Of a DNA stretch of 64,000 nt, positions 2,994 through 48,955 are shown one piece after another. Position 1 is the first letter of the stretch; every line of letters begins with the position of its first letter. The notes under the pieces are model-generated. The model saw nothing but the letters and a program-made list of their open reading frames with translations, did no database searches and had not been told where the DNA came from. The stretch covers positions 58,224-122,223 of the forward strand of contig DMXO01000004.1 of the NCBI GenBank assembly GCA_003482855.1, written 5' to 3'. This DNA comes from Candidatus Magasanikiibacteriota bacterium (lineage in GTDB: Bacteria; Patescibacteriota; Patescibacteriia; Magasanikbacterales; UBA922). Both the position numbers and the translations under genes were made by a program.

Positions 2994-4130
2994 ATGGTAA
3001 GTACTCGTTCAAATGGGACACAGCCGACTGGCCAACCCGTAAGATTTTATAAATTTGTTGCTCTTAGTTTTTTGGTTATTACTATAGTGTTGCTTGGTGT
3101 AGTCATATTCATGTCATCCAAGCGTGCTGACATCACCATAATCACACGTGCTGAACCTGTAGACGCGACAATGTCTGTAGATCTCGGGAGTACCAATGCA
3201 GTAGTATCTGGATTTGTCACGAGTACCTTTGTCGAGATGACCAAGAATTTTAGTCCAGAAGGGACAAAGACCGAAGAAGGCACAGCAGAAGGAGTGGTGA
3301 CGCTTTATAATGATACTGATGTCGCGCAACCGCTTGTTGCAACAACTCGACTTTTGACCTCAGATGGTGTTTTGTTTAGATTGAAGAGCGCAATCACTGT
3401 ACCTGCACAAGGTACAATACAGGCAAATGTATATGCAGATAAGGCTGGTACAGGTAGTGATATCGGACCTGCGAGTTTCACTTTGCCTGGTTTGCGAGAA
3501 GACAAACAGACATTGATATACGCAAAAAGTGAGATGACTATGAGTGGTGGCACCAGGAGTATAGGCGTGTTGAGCCAAGATGATGTATCAAAAGCAGAAA
3601 AAATATTGCTTGAAGAATTAAAGAAGAAAGCATCAGAAGATATGACAGCTCTGTATCCTGATAAGGGCGCCTTGTTTGAGGTTGCACAGTATGCATTTGA
3701 ACATGATGCAGAACTTGGTGTAGAGACGAGCCTTTTCAATCTGACAGGCAAGGCAACTGTGGTTGGCGTTTTTTATGACAAAGATAAAATTAATACCTAT
3801 GCTCAAGGTATATTGGAAAAGCAGGTAGTGAGCAATAGCGAGGTACTTCAATCTGTCCAAGATGCGCCCACAGCAGTCATAGCCAATTATGATATGGAGC
3901 GTGGGCAAGCCACATTGACGGTCACACATACAGGCTTCGTAGATATAGATCCCAATAGCAAAGAATTACAAAAGATAATGTTTTTTGGGAAAACAGAAGA
4001 TGAGGTACGTAGATACGTGATGTCACTCAATCATGTACAGGGCGTAGAAATGCATTTTAGACCATTGTGGAATAGGAGTGTTCCTCATGTGGCTAGTCAT
4101 GTAAATATTGTTGTGAGGCAGGTTGAATAG
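2994..4130 (+). CDS. Membrane-anchored hypothetical protein (N-terminal TM helix, large extracytoplasmic domain)
   Basis: 378-aa ORF; single N-terminal hydrophobic segment; directly downstream of pilB. Confidence 0.5.
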   Translation: MVSTRSNGTQPTGQPVRFYKFVALSFLVITIVLLGVVIFMSSKRADITIITRAEPVDATMSVDLGSTNAVVSGFVTSTFVEMTKNFSPEGTKTEEGTAEGVVTLYNDTDVAQPLVATTRLLTSDGVLFRLKSAITVPAQGTIQANVYADKAGTGSDIGPASFTLPGLREDKQTLIYAKSEMTMSGGTRSIGVLSQDDVSKAEKILLEELKKKASEDMTALYPDKGALFEVAQYAFEHDAELGVETSLFNLTGKATVVGVFYDKDKINTYAQGILEKQVVSNSEVLQSVQDAPTAVIANYDMERGQATLTVTHTGFVDIDPNSKELQKIMFFGKTEDEVRRYVMSLNHVQGVEMHFRPLWNRSVPHVASHVNIVVRQVE

Positions 4131-7344: not shown

Positions 7345-8001
7345 ATGCTTCAGATCCACGACAGAAAGATCTCCGCGGTTCGCGCGGGGATGCTCCAGGG
7401 TCACTGTGGGGCCATGACCCCACTGTTCTTGACCACACATGATGGTCTTCGTGTGGTGGAGTACCTCCAAGGCATCGCGCGTTCGTTTTCGTGGTCGGAG
7501 GTGCCGTCGCTCCTGGATCAGATCACGGCTCTTCGTCTGCCCGCGGACGACGAGATGTTCGGTCGCTGGCTCGACCAGATCGAGCCGACCGGGCGCTCGG
7601 AGATCACGATCGCACGTGGTCAGATCAGAGGCGACGTTTACGTCGCCGCGTTCCCTGTGCGTGAGGGTCGTCCGATGACCGACGCGCCGATCTACTCCTT
7701 GACCCAGGCCATAGAGTTCGCCCGGGTTTGGTTCTCGGAGGGGAGGATCACCACGGCCGAAGTCATCCACATGATCAAGGGTCTGCACGCCCTCGGGCTT
7801 GGCACGCAGGCCCCGCAGGCGGTCCTTCGGGTGTTCAACACCGACGAGATCATCTCTCGTGCCCAGCTGGGCCTCCGGGTCTTCGCGGCGCGGGAGTTCA
7901 CCGGTGACGATCTCGCGCTCATGGAGCAGATCGCGGTTCGGAAGCGGTGCTTCAAGACCGCATTCCCGGGCCGGGAGTACGAGGCATTTCCTGGGCTGTA
8001 G
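7345..8001 (+). CDS. Hypothetical protein, GC-rich cassette 1 gene A (218 aa)
   Basis: Strong G/C bias at third codon positions on + strand, SD AGAAGGGGG 6 nt upstream of ATG; opposite-strand ORFs are GC artefacts; no recognised motif. Confidence 0.6.
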   Translation: MLQIHDRKISAVRAGMLQGHCGAMTPLFLTTHDGLRVVEYLQGIARSFSWSEVPSLLDQITALRLPADDEMFGRWLDQIEPTGRSEITIARGQIRGDVYVAAFPVREGRPMTDAPIYSLTQAIEFARVWFSEGRITTAEVIHMIKGLHALGLGTQAPQAVLRVFNTDEIISRAQLGLRVFAAREFTGDDLALMEQIAVRKRCFKTAFPGREYEAFPGL

Positions 8002-8253: not shown

Positions 8254-8796
8254 GTGAAGAAGAAGCTGTATCTCCAGACCGAGTACAACCCGCGTGGTAT
8301 CGTGGGGTGGTTCGAGGTCTGGAGCGAGAGGGGGCAACTCCTCTCGAAGACCCTCAAGTTCGGGGATATCGCGGCGGCGCGTCTCATCGCCCTGCCCATG
8401 CTCGTCGATGAGGGTCACGAAGACCTCGTCGCCGAGGGGTCACGGATCATCGACGTGCTCATCGAGTGGCTCCGAACGAACCAGATGGGGGGGACCGTCA
8501 CCTTCTCGTTTCAGGACGGCCGTCCGAAGATCGAGGAGAAGTACGTCCCTAACCGTCGACCGGAGCCTTCTCCGTCGAGATTCTCGGCCGTGATCGGCGG
8601 TCGAGACGGTCTTCGGTTCCGACCAGTCGGCAGCGGCGTCCCTGAGCTCACGCTCGGTGGGCTTTTCCGCTACCTCCGCCAGGCCGGCGTGGCCACTGAG
8701 GTCGACGAGAGGCGGTGGCGGGTTGCCGTCGGCGACGGGGACCCGGAGGACGAGGACATGTCCGGGGGCGGCGACGACCCGGCGTGTGGCGACTAA
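8254..8796 (+). CDS. Hypothetical protein, GC-rich cassette 1 gene B (about 180 aa)
   Basis: SD GAGAGGAGGA at 8241-8250 then GTG at 8254 (ORF track starts at alternative GTG 8239); GC3-biased; hairpin CCTGCCCGTGGGCAGG just upstream; acidic Gly/Asp-rich C-terminus. Confidence 0.55.
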   Translation: MKKKLYLQTEYNPRGIVGWFEVWSERGQLLSKTLKFGDIAAARLIALPMLVDEGHEDLVAEGSRIIDVLIEWLRTNQMGGTVTFSFQDGRPKIEEKYVPNRRPEPSPSRFSAVIGGRDGLRFRPVGSGVPELTLGGLFRYLRQAGVATEVDERRWRVAVGDGDPEDEDMSGGGDDPACGD

Positions 8797-21754: not shown

Positions 21755-21845
21755 TGGCGGAGAAGGCGGGGTTCGAACCCGCGGTACGGTTTCCCGCACA
21801 CCACTTTTCGAGAGTGGCACCTTAAACCAGCTCAGACACTTCTCC
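21755..21845 (-). tRNA. tRNA-Ser (anticodon CGA), CCA encoded
   Basis: rc reads GGAGAAG..D arm..CCACT-CTCGAAA-AGTGG anticodon stem-loop (CGA), long variable arm, T arm GGTTCGAACCC, 3' CCA; 91 nt. Confidence 0.85.
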
Positions 21846-21865
21846 ATGTTAGTATATACTAGTAT

Positions 21866-21897
21866 ACATTACTTGTAGAATCAAGGGTAATAAAAAA
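21866..21897 (-). terminator. Rho-independent terminator downstream of the 169-aa gene (ACAGC-loop-GCTGT then T7 on the - strand)
   Basis: Read directly; also A-run/T-run symmetric (bidirectional). Confidence 0.55.
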
Positions 21898-21916
21898 ACA
21901 GCTTGAGGGCTGTTTC

Positions 21917-22423
21917 TTATTTTTGAATGTAGTTGAGAATTATTTTTTTTCTTGGATCTTCCATTTTTTCCAATACTTTTTGTATAATATCTTCTCTGAA
22001 TTTTTCTTTGGTTTGTTTGGGGTTTTTGTTTTTCGTATAAATAAATTCTACATTGAATATCAAATCTAGTTCTTCTTCTATCTTTTTTTGTGTTTTAGCT
22101 TTTTGAAGCAAAAATTCTATAAAGCAGTTTTTGTATTGTTCTAGTGTTTTACAATTTAAGAAATTTTGTGGACCAAAAAGTACTTTGTCTTCATTGCTTG
22201 CTTTGTAGAGTCCAGCAGAAAAATTGTTTTTCTTTCGTTCATCTTTTACCAGATTATAAAGAGGACAGTTTGGACAATCATTGTTACATTTTCTCACATC
22301 ATCTGTGTCAAATATAAATCTAAATCCGCGCCAATCGTCTATAATAATATTAATAAAATTGTTATATTCTTTTGAAAATTTATTGAATTTATTTTGTGCA
22401 ATCGTAAGGATTTTTTTGTTCAT
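21917..22423 (-). CDS. Hypothetical AT-rich 169-aa protein with CNNDCPNCP cysteine motif, directly downstream of the rSAM-SPASM gene
   Basis: ATG at 22423 (MNKKILTIAQ...); the ORF-track extension into the GC-rich region is spurious read-through of the open frame. Confidence 0.55.
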   Translation of the reverse strand: MNKKILTIAQNKFNKFSKEYNNFINIIIDDWRGFRFIFDTDDVRKCNNDCPNCPLYNLVKDERKKNNFSAGLYKASNEDKVLFGPQNFLNCKTLEQYKNCFIEFLLQKAKTQKKIEEELDLIFNVEFIYTKNKNPKQTKEKFREDIIQKVLEKMEDPRKKIILNYIQK

Positions 22424-22440
22424 ATATTTATGGTTGGAAT

Positions 22441-22475
22441 GGTAGTCGGGTACGCGAGGTGCGTACCCGACTACC
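22441..22475. terminator. Perfect 15-bp stem hairpin GGTAGTCGGGTACGC-gaggt-GCGTACCCGACTACC just 3' of the rSAM gene
   Basis: Read directly; no strong U-run follows, so possibly an attenuating or processing hairpin rather than a full terminator. Confidence 0.5.
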
Positions 22476-22478
22476 TGC

Positions 22479-23576
22479 TTAATCCTCCTTGAGGTGGGGT
22501 AGCGGGCACAGGGTGTATCCGCCACAGGGGTCACCCATACCCTCGACCGTCGCGCGGCAACCACCGCGGCACTTGTCCCAGCGGTCGCACGAGCCACATG
22601 GCTCGCCGACGGTCTCCTGGGTCAGGGCGAGGCGCGAGCAGATCAGGTCGGACTCGTACGCCGCCCGGATGGGGTCTGGGTCGTCGACGTGACCGAGCGG
22701 GACCGTGGAGTTCGAGCACGCACGGATGCTTCCGTCGACTGCGAAGTATAGCCCCTTGTCGTAGAAGGGACATGAGCCGAACAGGTGGGGCATGAGTACT
22801 GCGGCTCGTGGGTTTTTGAATTCCGGCCAGAGGCCGTCGTCCATGGCCGAGGCGGAGGACTGCATGTAGTCGCGTCCCTGGTGCTCGAGCGTGCGGATCA
22901 AATCCGCAAGCTCCTCGGGCGTCGGCGCGACCTCGAAGTACTCCGGTCCGACCGGCTCGCCCGAGCCCATGAGCTCGAGATCCACACCGATTCCCCTCAT
23001 CCTGCAGAACCGGATGTAGTCGGGCACGAGCGCGATGTTGTCTTTGCGGATCAGATTCTGGAGCCGGAACAGCGGATCGCGATATCCGACCCCGCAGAAC
23101 ACGTCGATCGCCGTGCGCATCTTGCGCGCCATGTCGACGGTCGATCCAATCATCTGTACCTGGAGGCGTATTTGGTCGGGGTCGTTCGAGTCGGCGATGT
23201 TCCACTTGCCGGTGATGTGCACGCGGCGCTCGTAGAGCCAGGCGGCGAGTTCGGGCGTGATCGAGATCATGTTGGTGAACACCCACGGTTTGATGCCACG
23301 GGAGATGAGGATCTCGATGTATTCCTTGAGGTGGGGCCACAGGAGTGGCTCTCCGCCGAGGATGTCCATGGTCTCGAGCTCAGCGCCACGGTATTCGCGA
23401 CAGAGGTCGAGAATCCGAACCGCCTGGTTGAGTGTCATTGATCCGTTGCCCAGCTTGTCACGGCGCACCATATAGCAACCAGGGCATCGGAGTTGACAGC
23501 GCGAGGTCACTTCGATGATGCCGTAGCGTAGGCCGGCCCCGGTCTTCTCTTCGTAGCGCTTGCTGATGTCAGTCAT
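22479..23576 (-). CDS. Radical SAM enzyme with C-terminal SPASM/twitch domain (peptide/protein-modifying rSAM maturase-like), GC-rich
   Basis: CxxxCxxC (CQLRCPGC) near N-terminus; C-terminal CGSCDRWDKCRGGC Cys cluster; start at MTDISKRYEE (ATG 23576) overlapping the stop of the upstream 119-aa gene. Confidence 0.8.
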   Translation of the reverse strand: MTDISKRYEEKTGAGLRYGIIEVTSRCQLRCPGCYMVRRDKLGNGSMTLNQAVRILDLCREYRGAELETMDILGGEPLLWPHLKEYIEILISRGIKPWVFTNMISITPELAAWLYERRVHITGKWNIADSNDPDQIRLQVQMIGSTVDMARKMRTAIDVFCGVGYRDPLFRLQNLIRKDNIALVPDYIRFCRMRGIGVDLELMGSGEPVGPEYFEVAPTPEELADLIRTLEHQGRDYMQSSASAMDDGLWPEFKNPRAAVLMPHLFGSCPFYDKGLYFAVDGSIRACSNSTVPLGHVDDPDPIRAAYESDLICSRLALTQETVGEPCGSCDRWDKCRGGCRATVEGMGDPCGGYTLCPLPHLKED

Positions 23577-23928
23577 GTCGTTCTCCTTGGTTTTGGCACC
23601 ATGCTTCCATTTCGTGCATGATGCGATTCCATTCCTCTTCGTTTCCTGAGCGGTGGATGTACTGGTAGTTGGGAGTATCTTCGACAATTTCTATTTTTTT
23701 CCGTATGTTCTCCCTTCTTTCTCGAGGTCGTTTGTCGTCCACAGAAGGCCAACATCGGTTGAACCATGTAGCGAATACCACTTCGCCGTCCTGTTTGAGG
23801 ACAACGATGTCGTCGCCGTGTCCATAAAAGAGTACATTGACCTCAGTGGTCGGATCCTCTTTGATCAGACTAGCTACGGTTTGCCATGTCTTATTCAAGC
23901 TTGGCAGATCCCAGATGCTTTTCTTCAT
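23569..23928 (-). CDS. Hypothetical 119-aa protein, translationally coupled to the rSAM-SPASM gene
   Basis: SD AAGAGG 6 nt upstream of ATG 23928 (MKKSIWDL...); stop overlaps rSAM start (ATGACTGA); intermediate GC. Confidence 0.55.
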   Translation of the reverse strand: MKKSIWDLPSLNKTWQTVASLIKEDPTTEVNVLFYGHGDDIVVLKQDGEVVFATWFNRCWPSVDDKRPRERRENIRKKIEIVEDTPNYQYIHRSGNEEEWNRIMHEMEAWCQNQGERHD

Positions 23929-23958
23929 GTCGTACCTCTTGGGTTGTGAAATGAACAA

Positions 23959-24240
23959 GAATGGCCGCAGCTTTCTAAGCTATTGCCGTGCGGCACTTGT
24001 AGGTTCTGCCCCTGCAACTCGTTGGTTCACTACCACGTGTGATATCTTTTCACCAAAGTACCTTTTGTAAATAAAAAATCGCCTTTCAGCGATTGGACGA
24101 CCTCAAAGTAAACTAACCCATTGGCTGTTTACCCGAGGCCTTTTGTGTGATGTAAATTATTTAAAAATATATAGTTCATAGTGTTATAATGTATTAACAC
24201 ATTAATACATATTTTATCTTATGTCAAATAAAGACTGTGG
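23959..24240 (-). promoter_or_regulatory. Promoter (TTGACA ... TAATGT) plus ~290-nt structured leader with intrinsic terminator (ATCGC-tgaaag-GCGAT-TTTTTT); candidate attenuator/riboswitch
   Basis: Read on - strand: -35/-10 near 24215-24185, leader hairpin CCUCGGGUAAAC/GUUUACUUUGAGG, then terminator hairpin + U6 at about 24075-24098, then 140 nt to the ATG. Confidence 0.4.
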
Positions 24241-24245
24241 ATAAA

Positions 24246-24262
24246 AAAGCGGCCATGTTGGC
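24246..24262 (-). terminator. Rho-independent terminator CGGCCA-tgt-TGGCCG + U-run after the TrpR-like gene
   Basis: Perfect 6-bp GC stem followed by TTTTTTAT on the - strand. Confidence 0.6.
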
Positions 24263-24268
24263 CGTAAT

Positions 24269-24550
24269 TTATTTCTCGGAATCTAATGCTTTGGGATATC
24301 CTCCTTCTCCATGATGTAACCAATGTGCGATACGTGTCACTGTCGTGGTGCTCAGTCCTGTTTTTTGTGCAATATCTCTGTAAGGCACGCCTTTGTGTAT
24401 CAGGTGTACTGCTTCCCAGCGTCGAGACATTTCTTCCAATTCTTCGAGCGTACATAGATCGCGCAAAAAATTAAGGATGTCTTCTTCTTTTTTCAACGAA
24501 AGAAAAGCCCGCGAAAGTTTTTTAAGTTGTGGTGTTTTCCAGGTTTTCAT
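24269..24550 (-). CDS. TrpR-like YerC/YecD-family small DNA-binding protein
   Basis: 93 aa; motif ...PYRDIAQKTGLSTTTVTRIAHWL... typical of YerC/YecD Trp-repressor-like family. Confidence 0.7.
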   Translation of the reverse strand: MKTWKTPQLKKLSRAFLSLKKEEDILNFLRDLCTLEELEEMSRRWEAVHLIHKGVPYRDIAQKTGLSTTTVTRIAHWLHHGEGGYPKALDSEK

Positions 24551-35699: not shown

Positions 35700-35725
35700 C
35701 AATTGTTTTAATTATAACTTCCAGA
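35700..35725 (-). terminator. Terminator AACAATcGC-ttttgaa-GCaATTGTT + U6 downstream of the GC-rich 114-aa gene
   Basis: Read directly on the - strand. Confidence 0.5.
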
Positions 35726-35811
35726 CCTTGGTACTCTCTGCAAATAAGTTACCACGTAAAGAAATTTTATTCCCACGTGGTTTACAAAGAATATGCAGGG
35801 GTCTGGAAGTC
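35719..35811. repeat. 11-bp perfect inverted repeat ACTTCCAGACC / GGTCTGGAAGT enclosing 71 bp that contains a CCACGT...ACGTGG sub-palindrome
   Basis: Read directly; lies between the stop of the GC-rich 114-aa gene and its terminator. Confidence 0.5.
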
Positions 35812-35850: not shown

Positions 35851-36195
35851 TCAGACGCCGGTCTCTTCGTACCAGTGTTGCGCGACCGAGGCCGCGTGTT
35901 CGAACCGCTTGGCCAGATCCCCGGCCAGCTTCCTGCCCTCTCGGGACAACCCCCGCAGACGGGCGTGCAGCCTGAGCCGACTGGCCATGTTGTGGGTCAG
36001 CCGGAGGATCTCGAGCGATGAACCACTCTCAATCTCCGGCTTGAGCTGTTCACTGTAGAGGTTGTCTGCGTCGTACCAGATCGCTTTTGCGATCTTGTCA
36101 TGACCGGCTTGCTCTACTGCTCGAGCGAGATCCTCTAGCCTCTTACAGGCTCTCTCGAGAGCTCTTGCCCAGCTTTTCACTGCGCCCTGATTCAT
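35851..36195 (-). CDS. Hypothetical GC-rich 114-aa helical protein (cassette 3)
   Basis: GC3-biased coding on - strand, predicted all-helical, own AT-rich promoter (TTGACT...TTATGT) at about 36270-36300. Confidence 0.5.
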   Translation of the reverse strand: MNQGAVKSWARALERACKRLEDLARAVEQAGHDKIAKAIWYDADNLYSEQLKPEIESGSSLEILRLTHNMASRLRLHARLRGLSREGRKLAGDLAKRFEHAASVAQHWYEETGV

Positions 36196-47243: not shown

Positions 47244-47320
47244 TCATCTTTTGATATTATATGCAGTTCCCTACACAGTGTCTGGGGGAAGATCTTTACA
47301 AAAGGAAAAAGGAGGAGGCC

Positions 47321-48955
47321 ATGAAGGCTTTCATCGTTGCGTTGATCTCGGCGTTTTGGCAGCTGTTCGGGTCGCATGGGGTTCGGGTTGCCTTGATCCA
47401 GCCGGTGCCACGGCTCAGGTCAAAATCTTTGGGAATTTTCAAGTCCCCGGAGAGTATTCAGGCCCTCGCGGGCCAGCTCGAGGCATTCGGATACAACGTG
47501 CGGATGTACCACTCATCCACAGGCTGGGGCATGATGATCAGGCTCCTGTTATTCAACCCTAACGTGGTCGGGGTCAGTACTATGACCCCAAATTTCCTCG
47601 AGGGGAAGCGGATCGCTCAGCTCCTGAAGCTGTGGCGACCTCGTCTTCCCATTGTGCTCGGAGGCTGGCATGCCTCGGGCGCGATCCAGGCTCACCTCCA
47701 TGGGCAGGAGAGCGAGAGTCTTGGGGAGATTCTCAACCCGAACTCGCCATTCGACTACGTCGTGGCGGGCGAAGGGGAAGAGATCTTCCCCAGGCTCATC
47801 GCGAGCCTGCTCGCGGGGAAGGAGGTCGAAGCCGAACCCGGCGTTAGCATCTTCCGCAATGGGGAGATCCAAGTCGGCGGCTCAACCCCGAGGATTACCA
47901 ACCTCAGGGAGATTGCTGAGCCCTCGTGGAGCGGACTCAAGATTAAGCGCTACCGAGACAAACGTTCCGGAGCGCTCGATCTGAGCGTCCACTTTAACCG
48001 ATCGTGTCGGTTTCAGTGTGCGTTCTGCTCAACCCCCACGGTGTACGGCCATGGGGTGAGGGTGACGCCTGCCCTGCAGGCGTTCGCCTACTTGAAAAGT
48101 GTGGTGGTGACCCACCGCCCACAGGTCATTACTTTCACCGACGAGGACTTCTTCGCCCACATGTCGTGGGTAGAGGAGTTGGTCAGCCTCCTCGAAACCG
48201 ACAACCTCGCAAAGCAGTTTGGAGTGTCGTTTGATACTTTTGCGAGCATCAACGACATCCACCGGCTCCGCAAGGCCGGCAAGGGATATTTCCTCGATCG
48301 TATGCGGGCGGTCGGGTTCGGAAGCTTCACGATCGGGGTTGAGAGTTTCAATCCCAACATCCTCCTTGCTTACAACAAGGAGATGATGATCCTCCCGACG
48401 ATGAGCCGGGAAGAGCGTGGGACCTACACGGGACTCGACAACGATCAGAAGAAGCGCGCACTCGTCACTCATTACCGCAAGCGGACCCAGGAAGCGATCA
48501 ACTTCGCTTCCGAACACGGCCTGCTGGTAGTCGGCGACTACATACTCGGCAACCTCGGCGAAAGCGTGGAGGACGTGCGAGCGGGTTTCGAGATTTTCAA
48601 AAACCTCGAAAACCTGCTTCTCGCATACATCCCTGTCTTCACACCGTTCCCGGGCACCAAGATCTGGGGCGACGCCTACTCGTCGGGTCTGCTCCCGCGC
48701 AACCCTGACGGAAACATTGACTGGATGCGCTTCAATGCATCAGCCGGGGCTCTCAACCTCGGTTACGACATCGGAGCGCTCCGCAATGAGCTCGAGATTG
48801 AGTTCTACACGTCCAGCCGCTACCGGCGAGACATGCTGAAAAACTTGGAGAGCACCCCTGCTCTCCGTGGCCTGTTCGTGGGCCGCTTCAGCTATCTCGG
48901 CCGACTGTTTCCCGGCGACGTCCGCGTCCGGGAAATGATCCAGCTACTGGGCTGA
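47321..48955 (+). CDS. B12-binding-domain radical SAM enzyme (class B rSAM, methyltransferase-like), GC-rich
   Basis: N-terminal cobalamin-binding Rossmann-like region (VVGVSTMTP...IVLGGWHAS), radical SAM CxxxCxxC (CRFQCAFC); start at ATG 47321 after SD. Confidence 0.75.
   Translation: MKAFIVALISAFWQLFGSHGVRVALIQPVPRLRSKSLGIFKSPESIQALAGQLEAFGYNVRMYHSSTGWGMMIRLLLFNPNVVGVSTMTPNFLEGKRIAQLLKLWRPRLPIVLGGWHASGAIQAHLHGQESESLGEILNPNSPFDYVVAGEGEEIFPRLIASLLAGKEVEAEPGVSIFRNGEIQVGGSTPRITNLREIAEPSWSGLKIKRYRDKRSGALDLSVHFNRSCRFQCAFCSTPTVYGHGVRVTPALQAFAYLKSVVVTHRPQVITFTDEDFFAHMSWVEELVSLLETDNLAKQFGVSFDTFASINDIHRLRKAGKGYFLDRMRAVGFGSFTIGVESFNPNILLAYNKEMMILPTMSREERGTYTGLDNDQKKRALVTHYRKRTQEAINFASEHGLLVVGDYILGNLGESVEDVRAGFEIFKNLENLLLAYIPVFTPFPGTKIWGDAYSSGLLPRNPDGNIDWMRFNASAGALNLGYDIGALRNELEIEFYTSSRYRRDMLKNLESTPALRGLFVGRFSYLGRLFPGDVRVREMIQLLG

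Follow-up and report, generated by a model that had tools for sequence, protein, structure and literature searches.

What controls a radical S-adenosylmethionine (rSAM) enzyme gene that lies behind a leader with an intrinsic terminator in a bacterium of the candidate phyla radiation (CPR), and what might the enzyme do? The question was raised by a small gene cassette on contig DMXO01000004.1 of a Candidatus Magasanikiibacteriota bacterium (assembly GCA_003482855.1), in a stretch of 64,000 nucleotides that is referred to here as the window. The initial annotation, made from the sequence alone, had listed an attenuator-bearing leader, a gene for a 119-amino acid (aa) protein, an rSAM/SPASM gene, a hairpin, a gene for a cysteine-motif protein and an adjacent tRNA-Ser gene, and all of these were present on the minus strand where they had been placed. 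The TrpR-family gene at 24269-24550, the GC-rich island formed by the rSAM gene and the whole of the histidine theme lay outside that annotation.

The cassette belongs to an operon that is probably switched on by scarcity of histidine or of charged tRNA-His. This reading was adopted because the upstream gene encodes a member of the YerC/HisR family, a predicted operator of the matching type precedes the leader, the leader carries an H(x)H element, a tRNA-His gene or tRNA-His-like cloverleaf follows the leader terminator, hisS is linked to the cassette, and the protein encoded downstream of the enzyme is depleted of histidine.

Organisation and distribution of the operon

The protein-coding genes of the operon and the hairpin between the last two of them are as follows; the cysteine-motif protein is called p169.

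24269-24550, minus strand: hisR-like gene, whose 93-aa product is a YerC/YecD-type (HisR) member of the TrpR family
23569-23928, minus strand: gene for the 119-aa accessory protein, whose stop codon overlaps the rSAM start in ATGA
22479-23576, minus strand: rSAM/SPASM gene, 365 aa, GC-rich
22441-22475, minus strand: hairpin with a perfect 15-bp stem in the gap that separates the rSAM gene from p169, no U-tract
21917-22423, minus strand: p169, 168 aa, GC 0.26, with the motif CNNDCPNCP, His-free and rich in Lys and Asn

Related loci were obtained from genome and metagenome collections (100 loci, 80 of them non-redundant); the window copy is denoted WIN, related loci Lnnn and homologous proteins Pnnnn. 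The rSAM protein of the window was 100% identical to the Candidatus Magasanikbacteria protein DCS29_02375 and had 190 homologues at 55-77% identity. Those named by organism were mostly from CPR/Patescibacteria, with a few metagenome-assembled genome records labelled otherwise. Of the 66 testable loci, 58 had a hisR-like gene upstream in the same orientation. The initial annotation had coupled the enzyme to the cysteine-motif protein, and this was borne out, since a p169 homologue directly followed the rSAM gene in 59 of 63 testable loci; from this adjacency the two are judged to be a functionally coupled pair.

The unit that is conserved across the CPR therefore comprises a HisR/YerC-family repressor, a His-codon leader, the rSAM/SPASM enzyme, a strong hairpin and p169. 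An assembly chimera is unlikely because the operon proteins were seen on 6-9 contigs of several sources. No description of a system combining a hisR-like gene, a His leader, an rSAM enzyme and p169 was found in the literature searched; the operon appears to be undescribed, and the window holds one copy of this CPR-wide unit.

Regulatory signals upstream of the rSAM gene

Between the hisR-like gene and the gene for the 119-aa protein, the following elements were recognised in the order of transcription.

24243-24264, minus strand: hisR-like gene terminator, CGGCCAACATGGCCG plus six T, from the terminator scan
24236-24244, minus strand: conserved 9-mer TTATCCACA, upstream of TTGACA
24222-24227, minus strand: -35-like TTGACA of the putative leader promoter, read from the sequence
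24190-24209, unstranded: predicted operator of the TrpR/HisR type, the 20-bp palindrome TGTATTAA-tgtg-TTAATACA
24129-24179, minus strand: 16-codon leader open reading frame (ORF), MNYIFLNNLHHTKGLG; codons 10-11 (24147-24152) encode His-His
24099-24140, minus strand: hairpin H1, whose 5' arm is formed by the last four codons and the stop codon of the leader ORF
24073-24094, minus strand: leader intrinsic terminator, AATCGC-tgaaag-GCGATT followed by six T, from the terminator scan and kept in the 5-sequence alignment
23991-24062, minus strand: tRNA-His-like cloverleaf with acceptor stem GGTACTT/AAGTGCC, a D arm and an anticodon-type loop with GTG
23929-23955, minus strand: conserved GTTCnTTTCACA motif (box at ~23940-23955) and Shine-Dalgarno (SD) sequence before the 119-aa gene

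The hisR-like protein matched the Pfam family Trp_repressor (PF01371, 1.3e-21) and the NCBIfam YerC/YecD model TIGR02531 (63 bits, cutoff 42.2), and its best match in the PDB was 3G1C (1.4e-15), which is treated as HisR in PMC9413887. On these matches it is assigned to the YerC/HisR family, in which YerC is the histidine repressor HisR, L-histidine is the co-repressor and the operator is a 20-bp palindrome (PMC9413887). The palindrome at 24190-24209 fitted the TrpR and proteobacterial-HisR pattern TGTAnTA-N6-TAnTACA, a motif type described in the same paper, at 12 of the 12 specified positions, and was the sole match in the 64-kb window even with one mismatch allowed. Among the related loci (463 kb), 22 of 24 operator matches (at least 11 of 12 positions) fell in regulatory regions, either 32-53 nt (in one case 160 nt) before the start of the hisR-like gene or at the promoter of the leader ORF.

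The system thus resembles HisR regulons in its YerC/YecD-type TrpR-family protein, in its 20-bp TGTAnTA-N6-TAnTACA palindrome, in the position of the operator before the regulator's own gene or the regulated operon, and in the adjacency of regulator and target. HisR (YerC) regulons have been described in Firmicutes and some Proteobacteria, with the CPR not covered (PMC9413887). Unlike them, the system studied here has CPR hosts, its targets are an rSAM/SPASM enzyme and p169 rather than genes of histidine biosynthesis or transport, and in most lineages its regulator ORF runs into an attenuator leader peptide, an arrangement that is not described for HisR.

Both the TTGACA element and the 9-mer TTATCCACA were common to WIN, L001, L004, L009 and L040. 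The minus-strand leader promoter was not called by the promoter scan. The 9-mer, which occupies the same place in L001, L004, L009 and L040, is a perfect DnaA-box-like sequence and may be the site of a second regulator.

L001, L040, L037, L019 and L096 also had a leader ORF of 15-16 codons, with HH placed at codons 9-11. The same HH arrangement was present in L004 when the ORF was read from an internal ATG, L009 carried YH instead of HH, and longer ORFs of 24-27 codons occurred in L017, L028 and L036. Overall, the H(x)H element was detected in 55 of 58 loci and was degenerate in three. It formed the C-terminal tail of the hisR-like ORF in 45 of the 58 (tail-type loci), at a median of 10 residues (interquartile range 10-11) before the stop codon, and was located in a separate upstream ORF in 10. 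The free leader peptides showed no sequence conservation apart from H(x)H.

The view of the initial annotation that the leader is a conditional-expression element was upheld by the leader ORF, the covarying hairpins and the terminator. RNAalifold analysis of 5 relatives predicted 15 pairs in the H1 helix, and 9 of the 23 predicted pairs of H1 and the terminator were kept through changes on both sides. With this covariation, and with recurrence of the intercistronic hairpin in 54 of 55 loci, the leader hairpin, the terminator and the intercistronic hairpin were all beyond chance. In most loci the gap from the hisR-like to the rSAM gene measured 100-150 nt and held the terminator and nothing else, with no other promoter-like spacing.

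In tail-type leaders, a hairpin (regions 1:2) was formed by the final codons of the ORF, and a strong terminator (regions 3:4), typically CCCCTTCTC-loop-GAGAAGGGG, followed about 26 nt later. Region 2 was complementary to the 5' arm of the terminator in 35 tail-type loci (mean z of -2.1, with z < -2 in 19), and this pairing averaged -9.1 kcal/mol for cognate versus -7.8 kcal/mol for non-cognate combinations. The loop-proximal positions covaried, with CTTAGG matched by CCTAAG, TTGAG by CTCAA and TTGGG by CCCAA. As judged from their sequences, the tail-type leaders have the four-region layout of classical attenuators, and the position of the His codons is such that a stalled ribosome would be predicted to mask region 1 and a ribosome at the stop codon to mask region 2. 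When the tail-type relatives were subjected to constrained minimum free energy (MFE) folding, an antiterminator switch was obtained in only some of them.

In trpL, the tandem regulatory codons are at positions 10-11 of 14. Like the hisL and trpL attenuators, the leaders analysed here combine a short ORF, tandem regulatory codons (10-11 of 16), a stop codon inside a hairpin and a following intrinsic terminator, and relatives carry four regions in which region 1 resembles region 3 and region 2 resembles region 4. They differ from hisL (Rfam His_leader, RF00514) in having two or three His codons rather than seven, in matching no Rfam family and in often being the 3' end of a 100-aa regulator gene. 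They differ from both in their target, an rSAM gene to which one relative adds a tRNA-His gene, and in that no antiterminator was evident in the window leader. The Rfam search of the leader that had been suggested with the initial annotation returned no family: covariance models gave no match in the window leader (E up to 10) or the L011 leader, no leader match in the window or in 16 loci reached the gathering score, and no riboswitch, His_leader or T-box was detected in the window, its leader, the leader of one relative or the 16 loci.

A further conserved motif of two or three hairpins (...GAAgTCCGC-loop-GCGGATTCCc-loop-GGGAGA...), also without an Rfam match, was seen between the terminator and the SD sequence of the rSAM gene in L002, L003, L005, L011 (for example at 3860-3960), L021, L023, L029, L031 and L090. 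It was followed, immediately before the SD sequence, by GTTCTTTCACA; the GTTCnTTTCACA box recurs ahead of the 119-aa gene in the window.

A genuine tRNA-His(GTG) gene was located in L001, between the leader terminator and the rSAM gene, and at the same position WIN, L004 and L040 carried a 72-74-nt cloverleaf with GTG in an anticodon-type loop. When these three cloverleaves were aligned, 95% of cells were paired, 7 compensatory pairs were counted and none of 500 shuffles reached the observed value; MFE folding yielded the cloverleaf in L004 (z of -3.1) and L040 (z of -3.4). The 'P1-like helix' noted earlier in this leader was indeed present, and it is probably the acceptor stem of the covarying cloverleaf. 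The element at 23991-24062 went undetected by ARAGORN and by the Rfam model RF00005 for tRNA, and its T-loop reads GGCAGAA rather than TTCRANY; it is tRNA-like and not a tRNA. In placing a cloverleaf with the relevant anticodon in a 5' region it resembles the tRNA mimics of mRNA leaders (the thrS operator, T-box partners and tRNA-mRNA co-transcripts). Unlike those mimics, the window element is without the canonical D-loop and T-loop nucleotides and was not called as a tRNA. It appears to derive from a real co-transcribed tRNA-His gene, and could serve for processing or as a decoy, or be no more than a relic.

Two further observations concerned histidine. The hisS gene directly adjoined the cassette in four distant loci (L015, L016, L024 and L100); the full-length copies in the first three scored above the TIGR00442 cutoff, and the L100 copy was a fragment at a contig end. 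In the p169 family, His accounted for 0.31% of residues compared to 1.96% in flanking ORFs, a depletion of about six-fold, and 26 of 41 members had none. Three or four independent histidine-sensing signals would, on this evidence, control the rSAM enzyme and its His-free partner.

In the mechanism that we propose, a histidine-bound HisR-like repressor would occupy the operator and block the leader promoter, and transcripts that escape repression would be translated through the leader ORF. When His-tRNA is plentiful, the ribosome would reach the stop codon and the terminator would form; a ribosome held up at the His codons would instead allow the RNA to refold and polymerase to read through. 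Support for the refolding pairing came from the relatives in which the leader is fused to the hisR-like ORF. Polymerase would then pass the decayed tRNA-His-like element and go on to transcribe the genes for the 119-aa protein, the rSAM enzyme and p169, and the enzyme would act on or with p169 in a process tied to the histidine or tRNA-His economy. The identity of histidine as the ligand, the dependence of switching on the ribosome and the contact between enzyme and p169 are all steps that we infer from sequence.

The rSAM enzyme, its accessory domain and p169

The two domain searches that had been suggested for the enzyme had different outcomes. The rSAM protein matched the Pfam family Radical_SAM (PF04055, 4.8e-10, 40.3 bits, cutoff 29.5), and its CxxxCxxC motif (C27/C31/C34) was invariant in 30 aligned homologues. 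For SPASM, a cluster of seven cysteines (C269-x12-G-x4-C287, C327xxC330x5C336x3C340 and C357) agreed with the pattern of TIGR04085 and PF13186 (Cx9-15Gx4C ... Cx2Cx5Cx3C ... C, two auxiliary clusters), but the hidden Markov model (HMM) score of 23.7 bits was below the cutoff of 27. The positions C269, G282, C287, C327, C330, C336, C340 and C357 were invariant or nearly so in the same homologues, and one homologue, P0115, had a precomputed PF13186 match. The enzyme is predicted to carry one SAM cluster plus two auxiliary SPASM clusters.

No curated rSAM equivalog was reached; the best 25 NCBIfam matches had a top score of 42 bits against cutoffs of at least 265 and were mainly over the N-terminal core. 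The weak matches included mycofactocin maturase and PqqE, and PqqE was the only solved structure reached by sequence (9e-5). The initial annotation had allowed for a housekeeping rSAM that is independent of its neighbours; such an enzyme was not found, there being no curated equivalog and a dependence on the neighbouring gene. An anaerobic sulfatase-maturating enzyme (anSME) was rejected, as no anSME model was among the best 25 NCBIfam matches and p169 has no (C/S)xPxR motif. A role in anti-phage defence was also rejected, PADLOC yielding only generic viperin-core matches to the rSAM domain. An SD-like motif preceded 61 of 68 rSAM genes. In one homologue, P0165 (305 aa), the first ~133 residues of the rSAM protein were joined to a complete p169, which may reflect an internal deletion or an assembly artefact.

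The CxxxCxxC core with a seven-Cys region of SPASM type, the small conserved partner gene alongside and the intercistronic hairpin are shared with the maturase cassettes PqqE-PqqD-PqqA, MftC-MftB-MftA, anSME and QhpD-QhpC. Unlike those cassettes, the operon has no equivalog match (42 bits versus at least 265) and no RRE/PqqD domain, its partner is a folded 168-aa downstream protein without an SD sequence, and its histidine-linked regulation has no counterpart there. The search for an RRE/PqqD domain, which had been suggested for the 119-aa and rSAM proteins, was negative for both and for p169.

The 119-aa protein had been put forward as a candidate substrate, but it was not conserved, being a separate gene only in the window and fused to the enzyme in two relatives. 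In a large protein search it matched only itself, and homology was detected with the N-terminal extensions of the enzymes P0038 (1e-14) and P0020 (8e-5). Its ribosome-binding region was an 81% identical copy of that of the rSAM gene, and because of this near-copy the split of a domain from the enzyme fits. A structural model (predicted local distance difference test score, pLDDT, of 82.8) had no PqqD/RRE-like structural neighbour. By these comparisons the protein is a sporadic accessory domain. Other ORFs were observed in the same slot between leader and rSAM gene, one of 177 aa in L004 (3402-3935) and one of ~190 aa in L090, where the gap between the trpR-type and rSAM genes was 743 nt; the slot seems to take varied accessory genes.

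An equivalent of the hairpin between the rSAM gene and p169 was present in 54 of 55 loci, with no conservation of sequence, a median uninterrupted stem of 12 bp and a median MFE z of -6.35. It was followed by a U-tract in 17 of the 55. The spacer from the hairpin to the p169 ATG was G-poor (3% G) and contained an SD-like motif in 0 of 55 loci. The hairpin is best interpreted as a conserved processing, stability or partial-termination element. Its arm at 22462-22474, when inverted, was 92% identical over 13 nt to 23016-23028 in the rSAM coding region (the LVPDY codons), possibly by chance.

The CNNDCPNCP motif and the AT-rich composition that had been reported for p169 were confirmed, its GC content being 0.26; its length was 168 aa and not 169. 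Five cysteines were conserved in the family, namely CxxxCxxC (C46/C50/C53), C91 and C100, and the invariant residues included D29, W31, R32, G33, D39, T40, C91, K92 and C100. The C46/C50/C53 motif was kept in ~90% of members, the first three cysteines being missing from P0162, P0164 and L021. Pfam and NCBIfam gave no family match for p169, and an AlphaFold2 model of high confidence (pLDDT 95.6, predicted template modelling score 0.89) had no significant neighbour in a structural search of the PDB. The protein is thus modelled as a confidently folded globular protein of no known fold, and it probably binds a metal or an Fe-S cluster. This result, together with the occurrence of distant homologues without the rSAM enzyme, argued against the initial annotation's reading of the cassette as one for a ribosomally synthesized and post-translationally modified peptide (RiPP).

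A profile search recovered a wider family of ~190-aa p169-like proteins that retain CxxxCxxC and NCKT. Their neighbours were class I methyltransferases, glyA, a class II aminoacyl-tRNA synthetase or clpP, and in P0231 the domain was fused to a C_GCAxxG_C_C putative redox domain. These contexts, which had been expected to point to a function, included no member of this rSAM family. In P0251, a p169-like domain was fused to a 180-aa N-terminal region without an assigned family. For the operon itself, p169 may be a substrate, a reductant or a specificity partner of the rSAM enzyme.

Downstream of p169, the operon is bounded by two features.

21891-21915, minus strand: operon-closing terminator, stem AAACAGC/GCTGTTT followed by a run of six T
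21755-21845, minus strand: tRNA-Ser(CGA) gene

The terminator scan listed the bidirectional hairpin at 21891-21915 in its plus-strand form only, and the minus-strand form was read from the sequence. Around the related loci, a tmRNA gene was observed within ~2 kb of the cassette in four (L006:6226-6615, L008:2279-2668, L013:2316-2715 and L025:5662-6052), an SmpB-like ORF adjoined it in four, and genes for EF-G, IF-3, L20 and ArgRS recurred nearby. These neighbours may indicate a functional tie to ribosome rescue or translation, or may merely reflect dense CPR synteny. A second, different rSAM/SPASM gene, with a SPASM HMM score above the cutoff (36 bits), was found directly beside the cassette in three loci (L022:2369-3469, L055:1224-2456 and L050:1801-2898); in L022 and L055 it lay just upstream of the hisR-like gene.

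Competing explanations, gene replacement and significance

Several observations weigh against control by histidine or charged tRNA-His. The window leader ORF has no SD sequence and only two His codons, and constrained MFE folding of the window leader produced no antiterminator, the terminator being retained in every modelled ribosome state. Because of this folding result, ribosome-dependent switching in the window is proposed by analogy with the tail-type relatives. The window cloverleaf is degenerate and partly decayed (z of -0.8), hisS adjacency comes from four loci only, and a generally Lys/Asn-rich composition may account for part of the His depletion of p169. HisR-family paralogues may take other ligands, as HisR2 controls tyrosine genes, and distant p169-like proteins occur without this rSAM family, which weakens the case for an enzyme-substrate relation. 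We know of no histidine-related chemistry for SPASM enzymes and, to our knowledge, CPR bacteria are generally thought to be without histidine biosynthesis, which bears on what benefit the system would bring.

A more specific proposal builds on the histidine reading. The rSAM enzyme and p169 would carry out a hitherto undescribed reaction that helps a His-auxotrophic CPR bacterium through histidine shortage, candidates being the salvage or oxidation of a scavenged precursor to histidine and a change in His decoding brought about by modifying tRNA-His or HisRS. Expression would follow a new design, in which the HisR gene is translationally fused to the His-attenuator leader peptide and the attenuator, in some lineages, also drives the tRNA-His gene. 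This extended proposal is tentative, and we consider it somewhat unlikely as a whole.

Of the alternatives to histidine control, the one that survives best is a maturation unrelated to histidine, in which the enzyme, like anSME or QhpD, modifies or crosslinks its partner p169, the regulator senses another ligand, and the His codons and the tRNA-like element are incidental. The substrates of SPASM enzymes are commonly proteins or peptides that contain cysteine, and this preference, the tight pairing of the rSAM gene with p169, the five conserved cysteines of p169 and the existence of HisR paralogues with other specificities are all in keeping with such a role. We nevertheless regard it as improbable, since it leaves the coincidence of several independent histidine-linked signals as an accident, the first three cysteines are missing in P0162, P0164 and L021, p169-like proteins exist without the enzyme, and p169 has no anSME-type (C/S)xPxR.

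The cassette might instead resemble PqqA/PqqE or MftA/MftC, the His-His peptide, whether free or as a TrpR-like tail, being the precursor, a leaky terminator keeping it in excess, the rSAM/SPASM enzyme modifying it, and p169 and/or the 119-aa protein serving as chaperone. A small ORF, a terminator and an rSAM/SPASM enzyme do form the classic RiPP layout, the weak best NCBIfam matches include mycofactocin maturase and PqqE, with the PqqE structure reached at 9e-5, and the position of H(x)H relative to the C-terminus is conserved. However, the free peptides are not conserved beyond H(x)H, and the coding tail mirrors and covaries with the terminator arms, which is a constraint at the RNA level that a precursor would not need. 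No RRE/PqqD domain occurs in the rSAM protein, the 119-aa protein or p169, the carrier protein is by its matches a true YerC/HisR member with operators where they would be expected, and the linkage to tRNA-His and hisS is left unexplained. We give this alternative little credence.

Equally little is given to a leader without regulatory function, whose terminator would simply end a small independent or hisR-like transcript, with the rSAM operon expressed from its own unrecognised promoter or by constitutive leak-through and the cloverleaf being a dead tRNA pseudogene. The lack of an antiterminator in the window leader, the decay of the window cloverleaf and the failure of the scan to call a minus-strand promoter are as this explanation would have it. 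Against it, leader ORF length and His position are kept across otherwise diverged lineages, H1 covaries, the tail-type relatives show four-region attenuator logic, and in most loci only the terminator, with no other promoter-like spacing, separates the hisR-like and rSAM genes.

The initial annotation had also proposed that the cassette was acquired as an island at the tRNA gene, and this was addressed through base composition. The window contig is AT-rich (GC ~0.38). The GC content at third codon positions (GC3) was 0.81-0.82 for the rSAM gene, 0.53 for the 119-aa gene, 0.35 for the hisR-like gene and 0.23 for p169, compared to 0.26-0.40 for ordinary window genes, with a sharp GC step at either end of the segment formed by the 119-aa and rSAM genes. 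Across the 42 loci with enough flank, GC3 followed that of the flank for the hisR-like gene and p169 (r = 0.87 each, p169 with an offset of -0.13) and less closely for the rSAM gene (r = 0.50). The rSAM gene was above its flank in 35 of the 42 (Wilcoxon p = 2.6e-5; +0.47 in the window), exceeding it by more than 0.15 in 10 loci and falling more than 0.15 below it in 2. Within the window's own group, the identity of the hisR-like proteins was 64-67%, yet that of the rSAM proteins was 55-77%, and rSAM proteins of GC-rich lineages reached 67-72% identity though their hisR-like proteins were only 40-45% identical. Neighbour-joining trees of the rSAM, hisR-like and p169 proteins were too star-like to prove individual transfers.

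The composition points to replacement of one gene in a resident operon and not to insertion of a cassette. It suggests that the rSAM gene has been recurrently replaced in place and that, in the window, the donor was a GC-rich CPR bacterium; alternatively, the GC3 pattern may reflect gene-specific selection on codon composition. Scans of 78 loci showed that adjacency of a tRNA gene to the cassette is not conserved, no flanking direct repeats and no integrase were found at the cassette, and the upstream flank (Polysacc_synt, EamA, Wzy_C) is common to the window and one relative that carries the operon. On these three grounds the cassette is taken to be resident, and its adjacency to tRNA-Ser is incidental. 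A recently acquired island inserted beside tRNA-Ser is accordingly very improbable, for although the sharp GC step, the other GC3-rich patches of the window and the adjacent tRNA gene would suit it, foreign composition is confined to the rSAM gene and, to a lesser degree, the 119-aa gene, the hisR-like gene and p169 being host-like, and the shared synteny, the unconserved tRNA adjacency and the missing integrase and repeats all contradict it.

Four more GC3-rich ORFs (0.70-0.80) were noted elsewhere in the window, at 7345-8001, 8398-8796, 35851-36195 and 47261-48955. Two of them had no family match, nor did the 114-aa ORF at 35851-36195, and one encodes a 564-aa B12-binding radical SAM protein. 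Just upstream of 35851-36195 there is an inverted repeat, CTTCCAGACC (35720-35729) and GGTCTGGAAG (35801-35810). Several genes in the window seem to come from GC-rich donors, which gives it the look of a mosaic.

A substantial part of bacterial diversity belongs to the CPR/Patescibacteria, whose genomes are tiny and whose conserved lineage-specific genes are mostly without an assigned function. If control by histidine is correct, a CPR-wide enzyme-partner pair, kept at 55-77% identity across classes, would be tied to a specific signal, histidine or His-tRNA, and two hypothetical proteins would become a testable system. The HisR regulon concept would be extended to a new phylum-level group and to targets other than his genes. 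It would also take in a regulator whose ORF has merged with the leader peptide of an attenuator, and His attenuation that governs a tRNA-His gene or what is left of one. The sharp GC3 contrast affects a single gene of the resident operon and has the look of a clean natural case of in-place replacement in streamlined genomes.

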